From NCBI GenBank assembly GCA_029210965.1, contig JARGFZ010000003.1:55893-119892 (forward strand): 64,000 nt of DNA. Direction: 5' to 3'. The notes beneath the pieces are model-generated. The model did no database searches. It was not told the DNA's origin and worked only from the letters and a program-made list of their open reading frames with translations. Both the position numbers and the translations under genes were made by a program. Positions 4,112 through 47,654 of this stretch are shown here, in pieces. Numbering within the stretch: the stretch's first letter is position 1; each line of letters starts with the position of its first letter. The stretch comes from a bacterium (GTDB lineage: Bacteria > BMS3Abin14).

Positions 4112-4498
4112 ATGAGGCCGATTATTTCACAGAGAGTTTTGACGGCAGGTCTTTTGCTCGCCCTCATTCAAGCCGGGTGTCACCCTACCTCCAGACTATT
4201 GACGATAGTGTCCGGAAAAACCGTTTACGGGAAAATGGCCATGGAGGATACCGATATTGCAGTTTACCGATGGGAGCCGTCCCGATGGCGCTATATTTCG
4301 GGCACAAGAAGCGGCTATCACGGATCGTTCCGGGTCCACCTCCCACCGGGAACTTACCGTTTTAAGGCCAGCACGACGATGAGATTGGGAGACGAGGAGG
4401 TTTCCCTGTCCGGCACTCTGGAAAACCTGGTTGTGAAAAAAGCGATGGGGCGAATGGACCAGGTGGTTATTCTTATGGTCCCGGTATCGGTACCATAA
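4112..4498 (+). CDS. lipoprotein, carboxypeptidase-regulatory-like beta-sandwich domain
   Basis: lipobox LIQAGC after a signal peptide; small all-beta-like remainder. Confidence 0.55.
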   Translation: MRPIISQRVLTAGLLLALIQAGCHPTSRLLTIVSGKTVYGKMAMEDTDIAVYRWEPSRWRYISGTRSGYHGSFRVHLPPGTYRFKASTTMRLGDEEVSLSGTLENLVVKKAMGRMDQVVILMVPVSVP

Positions 4499-4500
4499 AA

Positions 4501-4549
4501 GGTCCTGGGTCCTGTGTTCTGTGTTCTGTGTTCTGTGTTCTGCGTTCCG
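4501..4549. repeat. tandem heptamer repeat (ggtcctg x2, tgttctg x4, cgttccg)
   Basis: seven consecutive 7-nt units seen directly in the sequence, between convergent genes. Confidence 0.9.
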
Positions 4550-4672
4550 GGTTTCAATATACTACTGATCACCGATTACCTGCCTTCGTTATTAGCTTCG
4601 GCGTGGCAAGCCGATCACTGATTACGGCCTTTACCCCGACACTCCGATACCCCGTTTCCCCCACACATTAAT

Positions 4673-6268
4673 TTATTGCCCCTCCCCTTCCTGTTTCAGA
4701 TCAAAAGTCTGAATCATTTCGCTGGCCGGGAACTGCGCCCTGGCATCGTCCAGGATCTGCTGAGCTTCTCCGGTCCGGTTCAAGCTGCTCAACACCTTTA
4801 CGAGAAGGATGGAAGCCTCCACCTGAAGGGGGGATGGTGGGCGCTGGGAGAGAAGGTCTTTCAGTACCTGCTCGCTCTCCCAGAACTTTCTGACCTCGGC
4901 CAGGCTCCTCGCATGGATCAACTGGTCTTCCGGCCCACGGTAGTGCTGTCTTGAAACAAAAGTATTTCTGGTTTCCCCGGAGGACACGGAACTGTCCTGA
5001 GGCTTCACCCCTGATGCAGCAACTTTGCTGTCCTCAGTTGGGCTTTCCTCGGCTGGAGCACCAGGTATTGAAAGGGCAACCGCCTCCTTCTGCTCTCCCA
5101 GCGTTTCCAAGGTCTGAACCGGGACATCAGATGCCAGAGAGGGGGCTTCCTTCAGAGCAGCCGCCGTGAGTGAACCGGAAGGGGCCCCAACATCTTCATT
5201 GGCAATTATGCCTGCAGTTTCAGATGGCAGCGGAGGTTCTGCCTGTGAAACCGCGGCCATTTCCTCCAGCTGGCCATCCCTTCCCGCAGAGTTATTCAGG
5301 TCAGATTCCCTGACCATGGGAGCAGTTAAAGGCTCCCCCGCAGCCTGAGACATTTCGGTTTCAACTATAGAGACCCCTGTCTGATCCAGTTTGCTCTCCA
5401 TTGGCACCTGGAGATCAGCCTTTTCAACCTCCCCTATGGAAGCCACATCACCTTCCATTGTCGCGGGCACCGAAGGGACCGCCTCCTGGTCCTTTGTCTT
5501 TTGTGACAATACCTCCTGCACCACCGGGGCCGGGGCAGCCTCGGTAACGGCCCCCGGAGTCTCCACCCCGACATCGGGAGTAGCTAACGCCTCCCCCTTT
5601 TTCAAGACAGGCGCCTTTTCCTCCAATATTTCCAATGCTGCGATCTTTTCGGGTTTGGGCTCGGGTTCGGATACGGACGCAGCTGTCGACCTGAAAGCAC
5701 CGTCATTTTCACGGGTCTCTTCAACCAAAGTACCTGAAGGCTCTTCACCGGAGGAATCCGCAAAGGAGTCCCTCTTTTCAAGTGAGAGTTCCTTTTCCCC
5801 AAGGGTAGTAACGTTTTCAGGTTTTTCCGGAGCCGACTCCATATAGGTAACAGGTGCTTTCGGTACCGGTATCGGGTCGTCTATCTTGATGAGTACACCA
5901 ACGGCAACTAAAACCACAAGGGCGATAGAGAAAGCCGGCGCCATTCGGGGTATGATGAAGTTCCAGTTACGGCGGGGTTTATGACTTTCAGGTGCACGGG
6001 TGGCAGCATCTTCTTCCACCCGGTCCAGGACGCGAGCGGTAAAACTCTCCCAGTATCTATCATCCGGCGGCACCATGCCCGGCACTCCTGCCATACCTTT
6101 GGGGTCCACCGCGCTGCCGGCATGGTGGTCGGCCAGTCGGAGTCGTTCCAGAAGCGGACCGCACTCGGTGCATGACTCGAGATGCTTCTCCACTCTCCGT
6201 GCCGCACCACGGGAGAGATCTCCATCATGGTAGGCCATAAGCCGCTGTTGTGCTCTTTGGCACCTCAT
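4673..6268 (-). CDS. anti-sigma factor: N-terminal zf-HC2 zinc finger, one TM, long acidic/Pro/Ala-rich periplasmic region, C-terminal TPR-like part
   Basis: HLESCTECG zinc-finger anti-sigma motif; TM helix ~res 105-125; ATGA start/stop overlap with the upstream ECF sigma factor gene. Confidence 0.75.
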   Translation of the reverse strand: MRCQRAQQRLMAYHDGDLSRGAARRVEKHLESCTECGPLLERLRLADHHAGSAVDPKGMAGVPGMVPPDDRYWESFTARVLDRVEEDAATRAPESHKPRRNWNFIIPRMAPAFSIALVVLVAVGVLIKIDDPIPVPKAPVTYMESAPEKPENVTTLGEKELSLEKRDSFADSSGEEPSGTLVEETRENDGAFRSTAASVSEPEPKPEKIAALEILEEKAPVLKKGEALATPDVGVETPGAVTEAAPAPVVQEVLSQKTKDQEAVPSVPATMEGDVASIGEVEKADLQVPMESKLDQTGVSIVETEMSQAAGEPLTAPMVRESDLNNSAGRDGQLEEMAAVSQAEPPLPSETAGIIANEDVGAPSGSLTAAALKEAPSLASDVPVQTLETLGEQKEAVALSIPGAPAEESPTEDSKVAASGVKPQDSSVSSGETRNTFVSRQHYRGPEDQLIHARSLAEVRKFWESEQVLKDLLSQRPPSPLQVEASILLVKVLSSLNRTGEAQQILDDARAQFPASEMIQTFDLKQEGEGQ

Positions 6269-20655: not shown

Positions 20656-20829
20656 GATTTAAAACTTTCACTTCAAATATTTTTTCATCAGGATTCACCC
20701 GGTGTAAACCTGTGGTGCGGCATTCAAGTGGCCGCTCTGCCTGCCCTGAGCCTGCCGAAGGGTGTACCCTGTGTTAAAGTCTTTTTCGGTTTTGTGGGCA
20801 ATACTCTCCACCAGAATATAGATTTTCTC

Positions 20830-42178: not shown

Positions 42179-42200
42179 GGCTATTATGTGTATAATAGCC
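42179..42200. promoter_or_regulatory. perfect 9-bp inverted repeat GGCTATTAT-gtgt-ATAATAGCC in the divergent NifX/DUF134 - rhodanese intergenic region
   Basis: seen directly; contains a TATAAT -10-like hexamer; lies between divergently transcribed genes. Confidence 0.45.
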
Positions 42201-42840
42201 AAATTTCCTCCATGTCAACCTGCACCCCCCGTCTAATTCAGGATCAGTCGATCAAAATACTGACAGGTGCACAAGGTGCACTTGCTTTACAGGAGTTCGA
42301 ACCAGGCATCACCCTGTTGGACACCGATGAATTAAAAAAGATGATCGAAACGGATGCTGACATGCTGGTTGTCAACACCCTGGCACCGATCCTCTTTCGT
42401 GACCAGGCCATTTCCGGTTCGGTCAACATACCCTACGAAAACCTGAAAAGGGGCAGGATCAGTTTCCCTGATGACAAAAACAAACAGATGGTCTTCTACT
42501 GCCTCGGCTTTCAGTGAACCATGGCTCCAGAGACTGCCAGGCTGGCGGTCGCACAGGGTTATACCAGCGTTTACCTATATGCGCAGGGCCTGAAGGGTTG
42601 GACCGAGAAGGGGCTCCCGGTAGAGTCGGCTAAAAAGATCCCCGCCATCTCCGTTGACAGAATACCTCCCGCCAGGGTGAAGGCCATGATGAATGAGGAC
42701 GATTCTATCCTTCCCCTGGACATCAGGGAAAACCTGGCACCAGGATCGCGCCATTTTTCAAAAACAAGGGCTACGATGTTGTCGGGGTCATGGAGGGGGG
42801 CATCACCGCCTGGAAGGATGTGGGTCTTCCCGTCAAGTAG
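42188..42840 (+). CDS. rhodanese-domain sulfurtransferase with in-frame TGA at 42515-42517 (candidate selenoprotein or pseudogene); second, partial rhodanese domain with frameshift
   Basis: ORFs 42188..42517 and 42521..42880 are in the same frame across one TGA (…KNKQMVFYCLGFQ-TGA-TMAPETARLAVAQGY…GLKGWTEKGLPVES); 7-bp GC hairpin gacugcc-AGGCU-ggcgguc 15-33 nt after the TGA; 3' part shifts frame near 42750. Confidence 0.45.
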
Positions 42841-43072
42841 CACATTGGAAGGACTGAAACCAGGGCATTTAATAACCTGACGCATAGATACAGCGATGGG
42901 GTGGCATGGCGGAAAACCTGTCACCCCATCTTCACGCCTGCCCACTACCCTGACACTCTGGCAGCTTGTCGGCAACTTTCCTCTTTACAATCTTTTTACC
43001 TATGTGACCTCGCTTGTTTATAACCACCCCTTACCATAGTGCGATGAAGATCCGGTCCGGCCTGTTGTATCA

Positions 43073-43657
43073 TTGTGTGATAAGCGCGCACGACCAGAAA
43101 AAGAAAGGCACTTGAACAAAAGGCTCCTCGTCATTGAGGATGACCTGGACATGGCCGGTATTATCGAGGACCAGCTGAAGGATGCCGGCTATACCGTCAC
43201 CGTCACCCACAACGGTGCCTCAGGGCTTGAACTGGCCGCGAAGCAGGACCACGACTTCATTGTGCTGGACATCATGCTGCCGGAGACAGACGGGCTGGAG
43301 ATATGCCGCCAGGTCCGCTCCATGCCAGGCTATACCCACATCCTCATGCTCACCGCCCTCTCCTCGGAGATCGACAAAGTTGTTGGCCTGGAGATGGGGG
43401 CCGACGACTACATGACCAAGCCTTTCAGCCTCCGGGAGTTGATGGCCAGGATCAAAACGATCCTGCGCCGGGACGCTACTCTCAGAGCAAAGAGAACCGA
43501 AGAGCAGCAGGAGACGATCCGGATAGATGCTCTGGTTATTGATGTTGGCAAACGGCGCGTTACCCGCTCGGACACCCCCATTGAACTGACGGGAAAGGAG
43601 TTTGACCTGCTGCTTCACTTTGCCCGGAAACCAGGCAGGGTCTACTCCAGCTTTTGA
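43073..43657 (+). pseudogene. OmpR-family response regulator lacking most of the winged-helix DNA-binding domain
   Basis: intact receiver domain and start of wHTH (…LTGKEFDLLLHFARKPGRVYS) then stop; no frame continues the expected ~50 C-terminal residues. Confidence 0.6.
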
Positions 43658-44895
43658 CCCTTTTCCCGGCCGCTGCAGGGTTCAACATAGTGTGGACACT
43701 CTACACGGTCAGATATCAACTCCTTAGTGCTGATCAGAGACTCAACAGCGGACTGGCTGACTATCTCGTTAAACACGAATTTGACGAAGGAGAACTGGCG
43801 AACGCAGGAGCAAAACTCGAACACAGCTTCGAGATGCTCATGGACATCAATCCTAACATCGAACTCTACCTTCTCGACCCTGAGGGGACGATCCTGGCTT
43901 ATTCGGCCCCCAAAGGCCATGTCGTGAGAGAACAGGTATCGGTCAACCCTATCGTGGAGTACCTGTCTCCGGCACCAAGCCTACCCATTCTCGGTGACGA
44001 CCCTCGCCACATGTGGCGCCAGAAACCTTTTTCCGCTGCCGTCGTCTCAATGGAAGGCCTCAAAAATGGGTACCTTTACATCATTCTTGGTGGTGAGGAA
44101 CACGACTCCCTTTTCGACCTTTTTACCGGCAACTCCATCTTCCGCATCAGCCTCCTGGTTTCCCTTTCAGCCCTCCTGTTTCTCTTTGCCACCGTATTCC
44201 TGCTCTTCAGGATAGCGACCGTTCGTCACAGACGGCTTGTTCTTGCCATGAAAGCGTTTCGCCAAAGTGACTTTTCCGTACCCGTCCAGGTGGTCCCCGG
44301 AACCCGGAAAATGGGGGGGGGACGAGATCGATCTGCTGGAAACGGTGTTTACCGAAATGTCCGAAAGGATCGGGGAGCAGATAGGGGAACTCAAGAACAA
44401 GGACAATCTGCGGCGTGAACTGGTCAGTAATATTTTCCACGACCTGAGGACGCCTATCGCTTCCCTCTCATGGACTTCCAGGAACCGGCCCGGCTCAAAC
44501 ATATTCAGCTATCGGCCAACATCGATGAAAACACGAACCTCGTCAACGATGACATCCGCCTGTTGGAGCGGGCCATCCAGAACATCATCGACAACGCCCT
44601 GAAGTTCACTCCCGAAAACGAACAAGTCACCGTGAGCCTCGCAAGTTTCGGGGACAAGATCAGGTTGTCCATCAGAAATACGGGACCGGGTGTCAGCCCC
44701 ATTGATGTGCCTCATATCTTCGAACGTTTCTATAGAGCACGATCTTCCAGCAGTGAAACCGGAGTGGAACTCGGCCTGGCCATTTCCCAGCGTATCGCCG
44801 AACTGCACAGTACTTCCGTAGGCCTTGAGAACCATCCTGAGGTGGGCAGCGTTTTCACCCTGGACCTGGAAGCGTGGTCCCAGCCGGAGTTTTAA
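43654..44895 (+). pseudogene. sensor histidine kinase with two frameshifts and an internal deletion between H-box and N-box
   Basis: three overlapping ORFs (43654..44418, 44267..44602, 44470..44895) tile one HK; first shift at a G9 homopolymer (44313-44321); H-box FHDLRTPIASL lies only ~55 aa from the N-box DNALKF (normally ~100). Confidence 0.65.
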
Positions 44896-45313
44896 TATTT
44901 TCGGCTCTTCCGGGAAATAAGTACCTGCAAATAAGCCCTGCTTTTACCAAAGGGGTAACTGTCAAACTCTAAAAGCTTAATTAACCACAATTCTTTTTCA
45001 CCACCCGTTCGTCGCTCGCTTCAACAATATGACTCACTAGAGGACGCTGAAGACACCCTTCGGCAGGCTCAGGGCAGACTGAGGAATCAAAAGCACTGAG
45101 ACTATCCCCTTCACCGAAGCTGATTGAGTCATCCAGGCCTGGATGAAAGTGAACTTTAATCTTGGTCTGCAGGACTCAATCAGTTGATTTCCAGGAAATC
45201 CTTCTCCCGTGGTGAAATGGGTACTGTAAGCATCTATTCCGCAAAAACGGGAGTATATACAGACCTTTCATACAGACCTTTCCTACGTGGAAAAGAGTGC
45301 GCAAGCGTGGAAA

Positions 45314-45703
45314 ATGGCACTCACGGCCGAACAGTTCCCTATCCTCAGGGAAGAAGGTACGGGACGCCCCTTCACAGGGGCACTTTGGGACAACCATCGG
45401 AAGGGCATTTACCGCTGCGCTGGATGCGGTATTGACCTGTTCTCTTCCGCTACCAAATACGATTCCAGAACAGGTTGGCCCAGTTTCTGGCAACCCATCG
45501 CAGCCGGCAAGGTTCGAGAGGTGGAGGACAACAGTTTTTTCACGCGCAGGACAGAGGTAAAGTGCGCCAGGTGCGGCGGCCACCTTGGACATATGTTCAA
45601 CGACGGTCCGAAACCCACAGGGCTGAGGTACTGCATCAACTCGGCGAGCCTCACCTTCGTAGATGTACCGGTAGAAGGGGCCATGATTAATGAGGAGGGC
45701 TAG
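45314..45703 (+). CDS. msrB: peptide-methionine (R)-S-oxide reductase
   Basis: CAGCG...GWPSF...[35 protein letters not shown] is the SelR/MsrB signature with both zinc-binding CxxC pairs and catalytic RYC; start at ATG 45314 (an upstream GTG at 45287 is possible). Confidence 0.9.
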
Positions 45704-45998
45704 GGTTAAATTATTGTTATGGCTGGCTCTTCCCGGAGCCCTGATCCTGACGGCCATGGGACCGACAGTCCTGACCCATGGCGCTGACCTTCAGACCGCC
45801 ACCTTTTACGTAGCCTGATATGACCTGGGCAAAGCCGCCCTGGCAGGGCGGCCGGGAGTCGTGAAAGTGTCAAGCGGATGGCGCGGTTTCAGGGTGATCA
45901 ACACTGTTTTGTACGACCCGGAGCTCATAACCGTGGAAGAGATGGTTGGGATCCTCAAAAAAAGCGGGATCTATCGCGGCACAGCTGATTTTCAGTGA
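45690..45998 (+). CDS. secreted HMA/MerP-like ferredoxin-fold protein with in-frame TGA (candidate selenocysteine) in the metal-binding loop
   Basis: ATG 45690 with gaagggg RBS, signal peptide [31 protein letters not shown]; mature TATFYVA-[TGA 45816-18][54 protein letters not shown] matches the beta-alpha-beta-beta-alpha-beta layout of MerP/CopZ with TGA where GMTCxxC normally sits; hairpin gccgccc-UGGCA-gggcggc 16-34 nt downstream; packed between msrB and msrA. Confidence 0.5.
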
Positions 45999-46025: not shown

Positions 46026-46661
46026 ATGAAAAGAATGCTCGTAATGATAATTGCGATGTTCTCCCTGGCGGCGGTTGTTACCGTTCCAGGCTCAGTAAAT
46101 GCCGAGGAGATAACAATGGATCAGAAAAACAAGGGTTATGAAACAGCCACCTTTGCAGGAGGCTGTTTCTGGTGCATGGAACCACCCTTCGACAAGCTGG
46201 ATGGAGTTATCTCAACCACATCGGGCTACACCGGAGGGCAGGAGAAGAACCCGACTTACCAGGAAGTGTCCGCGGGCAAGACAGGCCACGCGGAGGCGGT
46301 TCAGATCGTCTTCGATCCCGGGAAGGTTTCCTACAAAAAACTGCTGGAGGTTTTCTGGATGCAGATCAACCCAACGACCCCTGACCGACAGTTCGTGGAT
46401 GTGGGCTCCCAATACCGCTCGGGTATTTTCTACCTCGATGACAAGCAGCGCCGCCTGGCAGAGGAATCGAAAATAGAAATAGCTGAATCCGGACGCTTTG
46501 ATGGGCCCATCGTCACCGAGATAACCAGGGCAGGTGATTTCTGGCCGGCCGAGGATTACCACCAGGATTACTACATGAAGAGTCCGCAGCGGTACAAATT
46601 CTACCGCTTCGGATCGGGCCGGGACCGGTACCTGAATAAGGTGTGGGGGGGGAAACCGTGA
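46026..46661 (+). CDS. msrA: peptide-methionine (S)-S-oxide reductase, periplasmic (signal peptide)
   Basis: ATFAGGCFWCMEP active-site motif; N-terminal signal peptide; strong RBS aaggaaaggagg. Confidence 0.9.
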   Translation: MKRMLVMIIAMFSLAAVVTVPGSVNAEEITMDQKNKGYETATFAGGCFWCMEPPFDKLDGVISTTSGYTGGQEKNPTYQEVSAGKTGHAEAVQIVFDPGKVSYKKLLEVFWMQINPTTPDRQFVDVGSQYRSGIFYLDDKQRRLAEESKIEIAESGRFDGPIVTEITRAGDFWPAEDYHQDYYMKSPQRYKFYRFGSGRDRYLNKVWGGKP

Positions 46662-46886: not shown

Positions 46887-47654
46887 TTACGAGTCACGGC
46901 CCTTTTCTCTGCTATCCATGAGCTCATTCCACCAGGATCTGTTAAGAAAAGCATCCTCAGGAAAATCCACCATCCTTTCGAACCGCTCGGGCGACACTGT
47001 CAGCGAGATGATCTCCGGGGGCAGGTACCTGCGCATGGCGAGATCGGTCGCCCCGATGACTGCCCGGTCCTTCCCGAAGTTGTTAAACACCTCCCACATG
47101 AGACCGCACCCGGACGAAAAGGGCGCGGCGACCTCATCGGGATCAGATCTCCAAAAGGTGGCAAGAGTCATAAGTCCGGCCAGTCGGTCCGGGTCCGCGA
47201 AGAAGGTAACGGACTTGACCTGGTCCCAGTGATCCAGTTTGAGAGGGCCCATCAGGACATGATCACCGACAGGTTCGGGAAATACTATCTGGTCCAGGAA
47301 TTCCTGAGCGAGGGCAGGAGTAGCCTTTAACCCCTCACCCATGGGGGCCCCGTTTTTTCCATCGGTGAGGAAGTTGGCCATCCAGGGGGCGAATTTTTTG
47401 TCAAAACCGAAATGCTTCTGCAGCCCGGGGCAGCCGTGTGTCGGGTTCATGAAATCATCGCCCTCGGCCCGTTTGACTACAAGAGTTTCCCCCTTGAGCC
47501 AACGGGGGTAGTAAGCAAAGCAACAGGCACGGCCCTTGGCCTGGACAGATGGTTCGAAATCGGGTGAAGGATCGGTATCGTACAGCCCAATGATAGGGGT
47601 ATCCAACCTGAGAGCTTTCGTGAGCCTTTCGATCCCTGCCGACGTCGGTGCCAT
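46887..47654 (-). CDS. DUF169 (COG2043) family protein
   Basis: 255 aa with the family's conserved Cys/Gly-rich blocks (ACCFAYYP...HGCPG...SGCG). Confidence 0.65.
   Translation of the reverse strand: MAPTSAGIERLTKALRLDTPIIGLYDTDPSPDFEPSVQAKGRACCFAYYPRWLKGETLVVKRAEGDDFMNPTHGCPGLQKHFGFDKKFAPWMANFLTDGKNGAPMGEGLKATPALAQEFLDQIVFPEPVGDHVLMGPLKLDHWDQVKSVTFFADPDRLAGLMTLATFWRSDPDEVAAPFSSGCGLMWEVFNNFGKDRAVIGATDLAMRRYLPPEIISLTVSPERFERMVDFPEDAFLNRSWWNELMDSREKGRDS

Follow-up and report, generated by a model that had tools for sequence, protein, structure and literature searches.

Does a small open reading frame (ORF) that runs through an in-frame TGA between two methionine sulfoxide reductase (Msr) genes encode a selenoprotein, and what would the selenocysteine (Sec) do there? 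The question is raised by a gene hereafter called X, a working name for both the gene and its small candidate selenoprotein product, which lies between msrB and msrA in a 64,000-nucleotide stretch of contig JARGFZ010000003.1 (the window) from a bacterium of the BMS3Abin14 lineage. A previous reading, made from the letters alone (the sequence-only reading), had proposed a secreted selenoprotein of the MerP/heavy-metal-associated (HMA) fold that could be either an Hg(II)/methylmercury (MeHg) ligand or a redox partner of periplasmic MsrA. From the analysis described below we consider it probable, at roughly 0.8, that X is a real selenoprotein gene, and that its product is an exported MsrA-derived mini-domain, which serves an exported repair module as a third, dedicated member beside MsrA and MsrB.

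Gene X has a single in-frame UGA and encodes no cysteine

The ATG of X at 45690, the GAAGGGG preceding it, the overlap of its start with the final 14 nt of msrB (stop codon 45701–45703), the one and only in-frame TGA (45816–45818) and the absence of cysteine had all been described by the sequence-only reading, and all were confirmed on the sequence. The 27 nt that it had counted between X and the ribosome-binding site of msrA hold as a distance, except that they end at the msrA ATG (46026) and not at the ribosome-binding site. The conceptual product of 102 residues has a signal-peptide-like N-terminus, and the N-termini of X homologues are also hydrophobic, with a poorly conserved sequence in that part, which is consistent with an exported product as had been suggested. 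Because both X and msrA end in TGA, which serves as a normal stop in the window, the genetic code is not reassigned there.

A word-index protein search with X found seven homologues on eight contigs, all from close metagenomic relatives. Every one of the seven had been called as a 57-residue fragment starting at a GTG two codons past the UGA position. In the DNA, all eight relatives have TGA at the Sec codon, with a signal peptide and ...TFYVA in frame upstream of it and the same hairpin stem in each; synonymous variation was seen on both sides of the UGA. An exhaustive profile search, in which the post-UGA part of the X family was the query, gave 168 cluster representatives at E ≤ 1e-3, and the profile search of a 5.8-billion-protein collection gave 705 clusters at E ≤ 1e-3. 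At the Sec position, 38 of the full-length representatives have Cys and 25 have 'W', and about 80 further representatives are fragments that start immediately past it. The Cys homologues are single ORFs without interruption. One of the 'W' forms was checked in its DNA, where the codon is TGA and the gene caller had used genetic code 4. The profile search, which is not biased by a pattern, gave roughly 110 Sec-type against 38 Cys forms.

Public metagenome calls put Trp at the TGA of X in locus L009 (179–487), in proteins P0012–P0015 and in others, and artificial 'W' forms in protein databases arise from short contigs called under code 4.

Homologues were also collected with a hand-made degenerate DNA pattern that allows TGA, TGC or TGT at the Sec codon, which reached at least 120 species genomes; the counts of genomes and loci given here and below hold among the matches listed. 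The Sec codon is TGA in 114 and TGY in six. The pattern fixes Y-D after the Sec codon plus three residues downstream and may over-represent Sec forms, so that the resulting 95% Sec share is probably an overestimate. The X-carrying taxa include Desulfobacterales, Desulfobulbales, Desulfuromonadales, Desulfomonilia, Deferrimicrobia, Nitrospirota and Myxococcota, together with one Planctomycetota genome; X is also present in the genomes of the Delta 3 and Delta 4 symbionts of Olavius. Across 122 genes the frame is unbroken, and the amino acids are strongly conserved before the TGA as well as after it.

A covarying hairpin follows the UGA of Sec forms

The stem and loop that had been noticed downstream of the UGA are present as described, and the minimum free energy (MFE) fold is even 8 bp long with a GGC loop. 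This hairpin, which resembles a bacterial selenocysteine insertion sequence (SECIS), would aid decoding of the X UGA as Sec, starting 15 nt past it. Folding of the single sequence showed no excess of stability over shuffled sequence (z = −1.1), and the hairpin of the second in-frame UGA gene of the window, a rhodanese-like ORF, was likewise not significant (z about −1.1). Because these single-sequence statistics are not significant, the case for the hairpin rests on the comparative data.

Among the eight close relatives, only one of the six third positions of stem codons varies, and the change leads to a G.U pair, whereas variation is seen in 20 of the 23 conserved codons elsewhere in X that are at least four-fold degenerate. 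In 115 Sec-form genes, 87.3% of the cells of the 8-bp stem are paired, compared with 38–58% for slid partners, and six of the eight stem pairs have changed on both sides; one pair, for example, is found as A-U, G-U, U-A, C-G and U-G. The covariation score was 0.279 versus 0.166 for shuffles, and none of 500 shuffles reached the observed value. The stem is only 52% paired in the six Cys forms. The apical loop keeps UGG across Sec forms, as UGG(A/C)N.

A scan of both strands for a TGA plus hairpin in an open frame gave only two strong cases in the 64 kb, X and the rhodanese-like ORF. In the latter, the hairpin follows the UGA at 42515 after a 14-nt spacer and has 8 bp and a GGC loop (GACUGCCA-GGC-UGGCGGUC), nearly identical to the hairpin of X, as the sequence-only reading had pointed out. 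The N-terminus of this ORF matches the TsoB model NF045694 (1.3e-18, positions 41–161 of 572) and NF041203; TsoB is a rhodanese/DsbD-fusion selenoprotein. This second UGA-plus-hairpin gene is independent, though indirect, evidence that UGA is decoded as Sec in the source organism. Beyond about residue 185 the rhodanese-like ORF looks frame-shifted or degenerate, and it may be damaged too.

Taken together, with a conserved UGA, homologues that have Cys in its place, a covarying SECIS-like hairpin and coding sequence that is conserved before and after the UGA, the proposal of a selenoprotein has held up: X is well supported as a genuine selenoprotein gene, with a UGA that we infer to be decoded as Sec.

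X is a stripped-down MsrA core

No model in Pfam or NCBIfam covers X. Its weak profile matches are to the start of MsrA (PF01625 positions 1–40; PRK05550) and to HMA proteins (MerP, CopZ and NF041115). BLASTP against the neighbouring MsrA placed TATFYVA-U of X on TATFAGG-C, i.e. the Sec on the MsrA catalytic Cys. When the X family profile was compared with the Protein Data Bank, the top matches were all MsrA structures, and hhalign aligned the family with MsrA (E = 4e-11, probability 97.2%) such that U/C falls on the catalytic Cys; the alignment spans MsrA columns 7–80 only and includes a 17-residue deletion. Thirty members scanned singly against Pfam gave weak PMSR matches in 18 and HMA (PF00403) matches in none at E ≤ 1. 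The best PF01625 score in the family was 16.9 bits against a gathering threshold of 23.7, and the X of the window itself had no PF01625 match in the Pfam scan. Although the Sec aligns with the MsrA catalytic Cys, the motif around it is (V/A)xUYDVG and not GCFW. Its fuller form is F-x-V-x-(U/C)-Y-D-V-G, and the mature protein has this one Sec or Cys and no other Cys.

A structure model was made on a natural Cys homologue (P0032) with AlphaFold2, in which the domain had a predicted local distance difference test (pLDDT) score of about 97 and the Cys lay at the N-terminus of helix 1. The mature domain of ~70 residues is beta-alpha-beta-beta-alpha-beta, ferredoxin-like, and ends after beta4; the Sec is at the beta1/alpha1 junction, where HMA proteins have CxxC. 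Of the earlier assignment to the MerP/HMA proteins, the fold and the position of the Sec thus stand, but membership of the family does not, with Pfam HMA in 0/30 members and the stronger homology to MsrA. X is a stripped-down MsrA core, whose plain ferredoxin-like fold, converged on or retained, is also that of HMA domains. The domain is best explained as a minimal derivative of the MsrA N-terminal core: Sec takes the place of the catalytic Cys where helix 1 begins, and neither the 17-residue loop of MsrA nor any of its C-terminal half is present. All of the 124 homologues of X have a Glu seven residues ahead of the Y-D-P motif, which may be equivalent to the Glu of MsrA HAEAV..YDP. X thereby connects the MsrA and HMA folds, as an enzyme core of which only a ferredoxin-like domain is left.

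Two other assignments were considered and rejected. The best NCBIfam match of X was to the VPGUxxT thioredoxin-like selenoprotein type 2 model (NF041383), at positions about 126–208 of 287 and with 31 bits against a cut-off of 275, and X did not match this model over its full length. Because MsrA itself matches the same region of the profile, the match merely reflects the likeness of X to MsrA, and a reading of NF041383 as a fusion of thioredoxin (Trx) with X was abandoned. The selenoprotein TsoY (NF047643) was considered because its UxxV motif would accommodate U-Y-D-V and because there is a TsoB-like gene 3 kb upstream; neither the window protein nor ten family members matched its model at E ≤ 1.

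X genes often lie beside genes for probably exported MsrA and MsrB

The neighbourhood was analysed at 120 X loci. Six-frame ORF clustering of neighbours gave many antisense artefacts, and the analysis was restricted to clusters that Pfam or tblastn bore out. The gene order in close relatives is response regulator, histidine kinase (HK), msrB, X, msrA, DUF169. MsrA and/or MsrB were found on the same strand within 1.5 kb of X at 71 of the 120 loci, in the orders A-B-X, X-A-B, B-X-A, X-B-A and B-A-X, and a two-component system lies within 3.5 kb at 69; in relatives, the module with X commonly has an OmpR-type two-component system upstream. The Cys forms at L052, L058 and L074 share the context HK-X-MsrA-MsrB. 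Fusions were also seen. At L129 (about 4150–4950), X is fused in one frame to the C-terminus of MsrB (...RYCMNSAALLFAGMERAAGESTATFHVA-U-YDVGK...), and in L042 (about 4400–5600) and L048, both from Deferrimicrobia, a signal peptide is followed by X with its Sec, a short linker and an MsrA of GUFWG type with a second Sec. The ORF of L042 and L048 continues as far as one more in-frame TGA, its third (...CPAG-U-C...), which could mark either another Sec or the true stop.

The proteins adjacent to X frequently had hydrophobic N-termini by a crude test (48 of 63 MsrAs and 48 of 66 MsrBs). The MsrA motif was found in 57 of 63, all of the GCFWC type. All 62 adjacent MsrBs in which the motif was present have TGWPSF; because this replaces CGWPSF, the MsrBs next to X have no resolving Cys. 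A WCxxC protein was nearby at only one of the 120 loci. At about 13 loci without Msr genes, the gene right before X encodes a molybdopterin oxidoreductase that has a TAT signal and belongs to the sulfite-oxidase/MsrP family. Such oxidoreductases take the place of MsrA/MsrB directly 5' of X at L023, L025, L031, L036, L083, L112, L056 and L081, some of them short (about 218 residues). A DUF169 (COG2043) gene is convergent to msrA in the window (46887–47654, minus strand) and likewise in its closest relatives (L001, L003), and it was not found in the wider genome set.

Proposed role of X and its alternatives

The best reading of X is that it is a Sec-based redox accessory of periplasmic Msr, in line with the redox partnership with MsrA that had been proposed as one of two options, which fits the genomic linkage of X to MsrA and MsrB. 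In such a module, we infer that the selenolate of X would be the redox-active nucleophile. Most likely, once the partner reductases have reduced methionine sulfoxide and so carry a sulfenic acid, the selenolate would attack that sulfenic acid in trans; resolution in trans would be favoured for the 1-Cys MsrB and possibly also for MsrA, and the resulting selenenylsulfide would be cleared by a periplasmic reductant that is not encoded in the operon. Stated in full, X may be a previously unrecognised third component in anaerobes, the Sec of which resolves 1-Cys MsrB (and MsrA) in trans and which replaces the DsbD-fed Trx domain of the PilB type. This role is favoured because there is no resolving Cys in the MsrB partners and no Trx in the operons, and because X is found fused to both enzymes as Trx is in PilB; we put it forward as a tentative proposal, distinctly weaker than the assignment of X to the Msr module. 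If it is true, periplasmic protein repair would be coupled to selenium. X is in any case a concrete, testable candidate for the recycling of exported MsrA and MsrB in strict anaerobes that have no Trx-like partner in the operon.

Several observations weigh against this account, from the decoding of the UGA to the role. The window has no tRNA genes in its 64 kb, hence no tRNA-Sec, and none of selA, selB and selD was found among the 31 large ORFs scanned in it. Rfam returned no SECIS family at gathering thresholds over the whole window and none in E-value mode over both UGA regions; the sole match was a chance one to P11. There is no Msr gene within 3.5 kb at 44 of the 120 loci. With a single selenol and no Cys, X alone cannot finish a two-electron cycle, and no reductant was identified. 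The retained MsrA-type Glu would suit a direct sulfoxide reductase equally well or better than a relay, and its equivalence rests on the ungapped register to YDP, the gap having been placed otherwise by hhalign. Since 1-Cys MsrBs are generally common, the presence of TGWPSF in 62 of 62 is suggestive only. Finally, the broken regulator, kinase and msrB genes in the window and three unique substitutions in its X (see below) mean that this copy may be non-functional.

The main rival to a trans-resolving role is that X is a stand-alone, minimal Sec-dependent sulfoxide reductase of the 1-Sec MsrA type, which would reduce free or peptide methionine sulfoxide or another sulfoxide, have its selenenic acid reduced by an external thiol, and not serve MsrA or MsrB. 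The Sec is on the MsrA catalytic Cys, the register of the catalytic Glu is occupied by an invariant Glu, and the Sec lies within a conserved polar cluster (U-Y-D...E-x-N). In structure X is most similar to MsrAs, among them 4lwj, the 1-Sec-type enzyme from Clostridium oremlandii, and some X genes lie without MsrA or MsrB beside molybdopterin oxidoreductases. However, X has neither the loop nor the C-terminal half of MsrA, which in the Escherichia coli enzyme form the greater part of the substrate pocket and contribute the active-site residues Tyr82 and Tyr134, and the Phe-Trp that follows the catalytic residue is Tyr-Asp in X. Moreover, X is usually beside a complete MsrA and MsrB, where a third reductase of the like seems redundant. 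We regard this explanation as unlikely, though serious enough to be weighed.

It is considerably less probable that X is a periplasmic HMA-type chaperone of soft metals, binding Cu(I), Hg(II) or MeHg on one selenolate. The ferredoxin-like fold and the Sec at the position of the HMA metal loop would suit such a function, and so would the weak similarity (E = 1e-5 to 0.1) to the NCBIfam models of MerP, of CopZ and of NF041115, a metal-binding UxxU selenoprotein, the name 'copper chaperone CopZ' that IMG gives to X fragments, the full-length, below-cut-off alignment of the adjacent kinase with heavy-metal sensor kinases, and the YHS-domain and DUF364 neighbours at a few loci. The presence of hgcAB, which the sequence-only reading had also noted, is confirmed in the window by signature motifs at 30440–32109 on the minus strand, 13.6 kb from X: NVWCAAGKGTF of hgcA in a 431-residue ORF with a CdhD-like domain, and CMECSACSRNCP plus a C-terminal CC of hgcB in an overlapping ORF downstream. 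Against this, X has one soft ligand and no GMxCxxC motif, the conserved surroundings of its Sec are Tyr, Asp, Glu and Asn with no thiols, and its homology to MsrA is much stronger than that to HMA proteins, with none of the 30 members matching Pfam HMA. Its dominant neighbours are MsrA and MsrB, no mer, cop or cus genes were seen in the recurrent neighbour clusters of X loci, and hgcAB was found within 8 kb of X at only one of the 120 loci. The tempting link of X to mercury methylation in this window is therefore corrected as unsupported, and so is the proposed Hg(II)/MeHg ligand.

Least probable of all is that the TGA is a true stop, giving two small products (a 42-residue peptide and a 57-residue protein from a CTG or GTG two codons on) or a pseudogene: the database calls of all seven word-index homologues as 57-residue proteins, the state of the window copy and the absence of Sec machinery from the window would fit it, but it conflicts with the frame continuity and strong conservation that 122 genes show before and after the TGA, with the Cys orthologues L052, L058 and L074 (single ORFs in the same gene context), with strand beta1, encoded 5' of the TGA and integral to the fold, and with hairpin covariation that is confined to TGA forms.

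The window's own copy of X and its surroundings

The features of the locus are given in Table 1. The X of the window is still in frame and retains both UGA and hairpin, and it differs from its 124 homologues in ways that the sequence-only reading had missed, as it had the broken neighbour genes. Besides the Val at U+26 listed in the table (positions are counted from the Sec, U), it has Leu at U+3 (CTG 45825–45827), where 117 others have Val, and Ile at U+51 (ATC 45969–45971), where 123 others have Thr; both are unique among the 125 sequences.

Table 1. Positions of gene X, its signals and the adjacent genes in the 64-kb window
Feature	Position	Strand	Basis or remark
Rhodanese-like ORF, second in-frame UGA	42188..42880	+	UGA 42515–42517; hairpin 42532–42550
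Remnants of OmpR-type response regulator and sensor kinase	43073..44895	+	Intact in L001 and L002
msrB remnant	45184..45703	+	Pfam SelR, TIGR00357; catalytic domain intact from 45287
GAAGGGG, Shine-Dalgarno-like	45674..45680	+	9 nt 5' of the X ATG; read from sequence
Gene X, 102 codons including UGA, 309 nt	45690..45998	+	ATG 45690, stop TGA 45996–45998; translation
Predicted signal peptide, 31 residues, cleavage before ADL	45690..45782	+	Sequence features; cleavage site predicted
UGA, putatively read as Sec	45816..45818	+	Aligns with the Cys of homologues and the MsrA catalytic Cys (GCFWC)
SECIS-like hairpin, GCCGCCC-UGGCA-GGGCGGC	45834..45852	+	Starts 15 nt after the UGA; fold and comparison
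Parts of the hairpin: stem GCCGCCC, loop TGGCA, stem GGGCGGC	45834–45840 and 45846–45852 (stem)	+	
GTG (Val) at U+26 in place of Glu	45894..45896	+	Glu in all 124 others; register of the MsrA catalytic Glu
msrA with signal peptide, GCFWC type, intact	46026..46661	+	Pfam PMSR 3e-66, TIGR00401

Comparison with the relatives L001 and L002 showed that about 208 nt are missing at about 43651–43658, comprising the C-terminus of the regulator and the start of the kinase, and about 201 nt inside the kinase at about 44467; the kinase is also frameshifted. The 5' part of msrB is put out of frame by a 13-nt tandem duplication (two copies of ATACAGACCTTTC, 45257–45282), and its 5' end, including the signal peptide, has been swapped for unrelated sequence at 44889–45286 (plus strand), as revealed by tblastn against an intact relative and by blastn against L006 and L002. 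The replaced region contains an inverted repeat (CTGATTGAGTC and GACTCAATCAG, 45120–45130 and 45173–45183) around an 18-nt palindrome (45129–45146), and a 25-nt stretch of it is repeated exactly at 20741–20765 on the minus strand; the region may be the footprint of a small mobile element. X is probably under relaxed selection in the window, and either the locus is decaying in the source organism or the assembly is faulty there. The family-level conclusions on X are independent of this copy.

Comparison with known systems

A May 2026 review tabulates 119 prokaryotic selenoprotein families, and X is not among them (PMC13188914). By elimination, none of the new families in the study of Olavius symbionts (PMC1976440) is X, and the candidates OS_HP1 and OS_HP2 of that study were rejected as X by elimination against the 2026 table and not by sequence; nor is X in deep-Sep (PMC12013277). 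Among the best 120 of the 705 X clusters, none carries a Pfam domain, and their names are 'hypothetical protein' or, in IMG, 'copper chaperone CopZ'. Thus a family with about 700 clusters, present in at least 120 species genomes, is split at the UGA or mislabelled in the records examined. X may be both a new selenoprotein family and a new Msr accessory, and may have been described in literature beyond that covered.

Sec-containing MsrA and several metal-related selenoproteins are already known, and X differs from both. MsrA (PF01625, including the Sec forms with GUFWG) has about 150 residues, whereas X has about 70, lacking the 17-residue loop and the C-terminal half; MsrA has GCFW where X has (V/A)x-U-Y-D-V-G, and X is usually an extra gene beside a full MsrA and not its replacement. 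The HMA proteins (MerP, CopZ and Atx1; PF00403) share the ~70-residue ferredoxin-like fold with X, but they have a CxxC pair, or UxxU in NF041115, whereas X has one Sec and the two-ligand GMxCxxC loop is absent from it. The scores of X against these models were low, at 18 bits versus a cut-off of 95 for NF041115 and 13–17 bits versus cut-offs of about 91–95 for MerP and CopZ. The neighbourhood of X is that of methionine-sulfoxide repair, and that of HMA proteins is metal transport.

At the level of the operon, two known systems come close. In E. coli, the OmpR-type two-component system HprSR (YedVW) controls the periplasmic MsrPQ operon. The X module is likewise a periplasmic methionine sulfoxide reductase operon under an OmpR-type system, and a gene of the MsrP/sulfite-oxidase family lies 5' of some X genes; neither the regulator nor the kinase of the X locus reaches any equivalog cut-off. 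Unlike MsrPQ, the enzymes of the X module are the thiol-based MsrA and MsrB, and no MsrQ-like partner was seen. The other system is Neisseria PilB (Trx-MsrA-MsrB, NF010625), in which, as in the X module, exported MsrA and MsrB are joined by a small third redox domain, and X is sometimes fused as well. The third domain of PilB is a Trx-fold CxxC domain that is fed by DsbD. Unlike PilB, the X module has no DsbD/CcdA or Trx gene nearby, and its third component is instead a one-Sec domain derived from MsrA.

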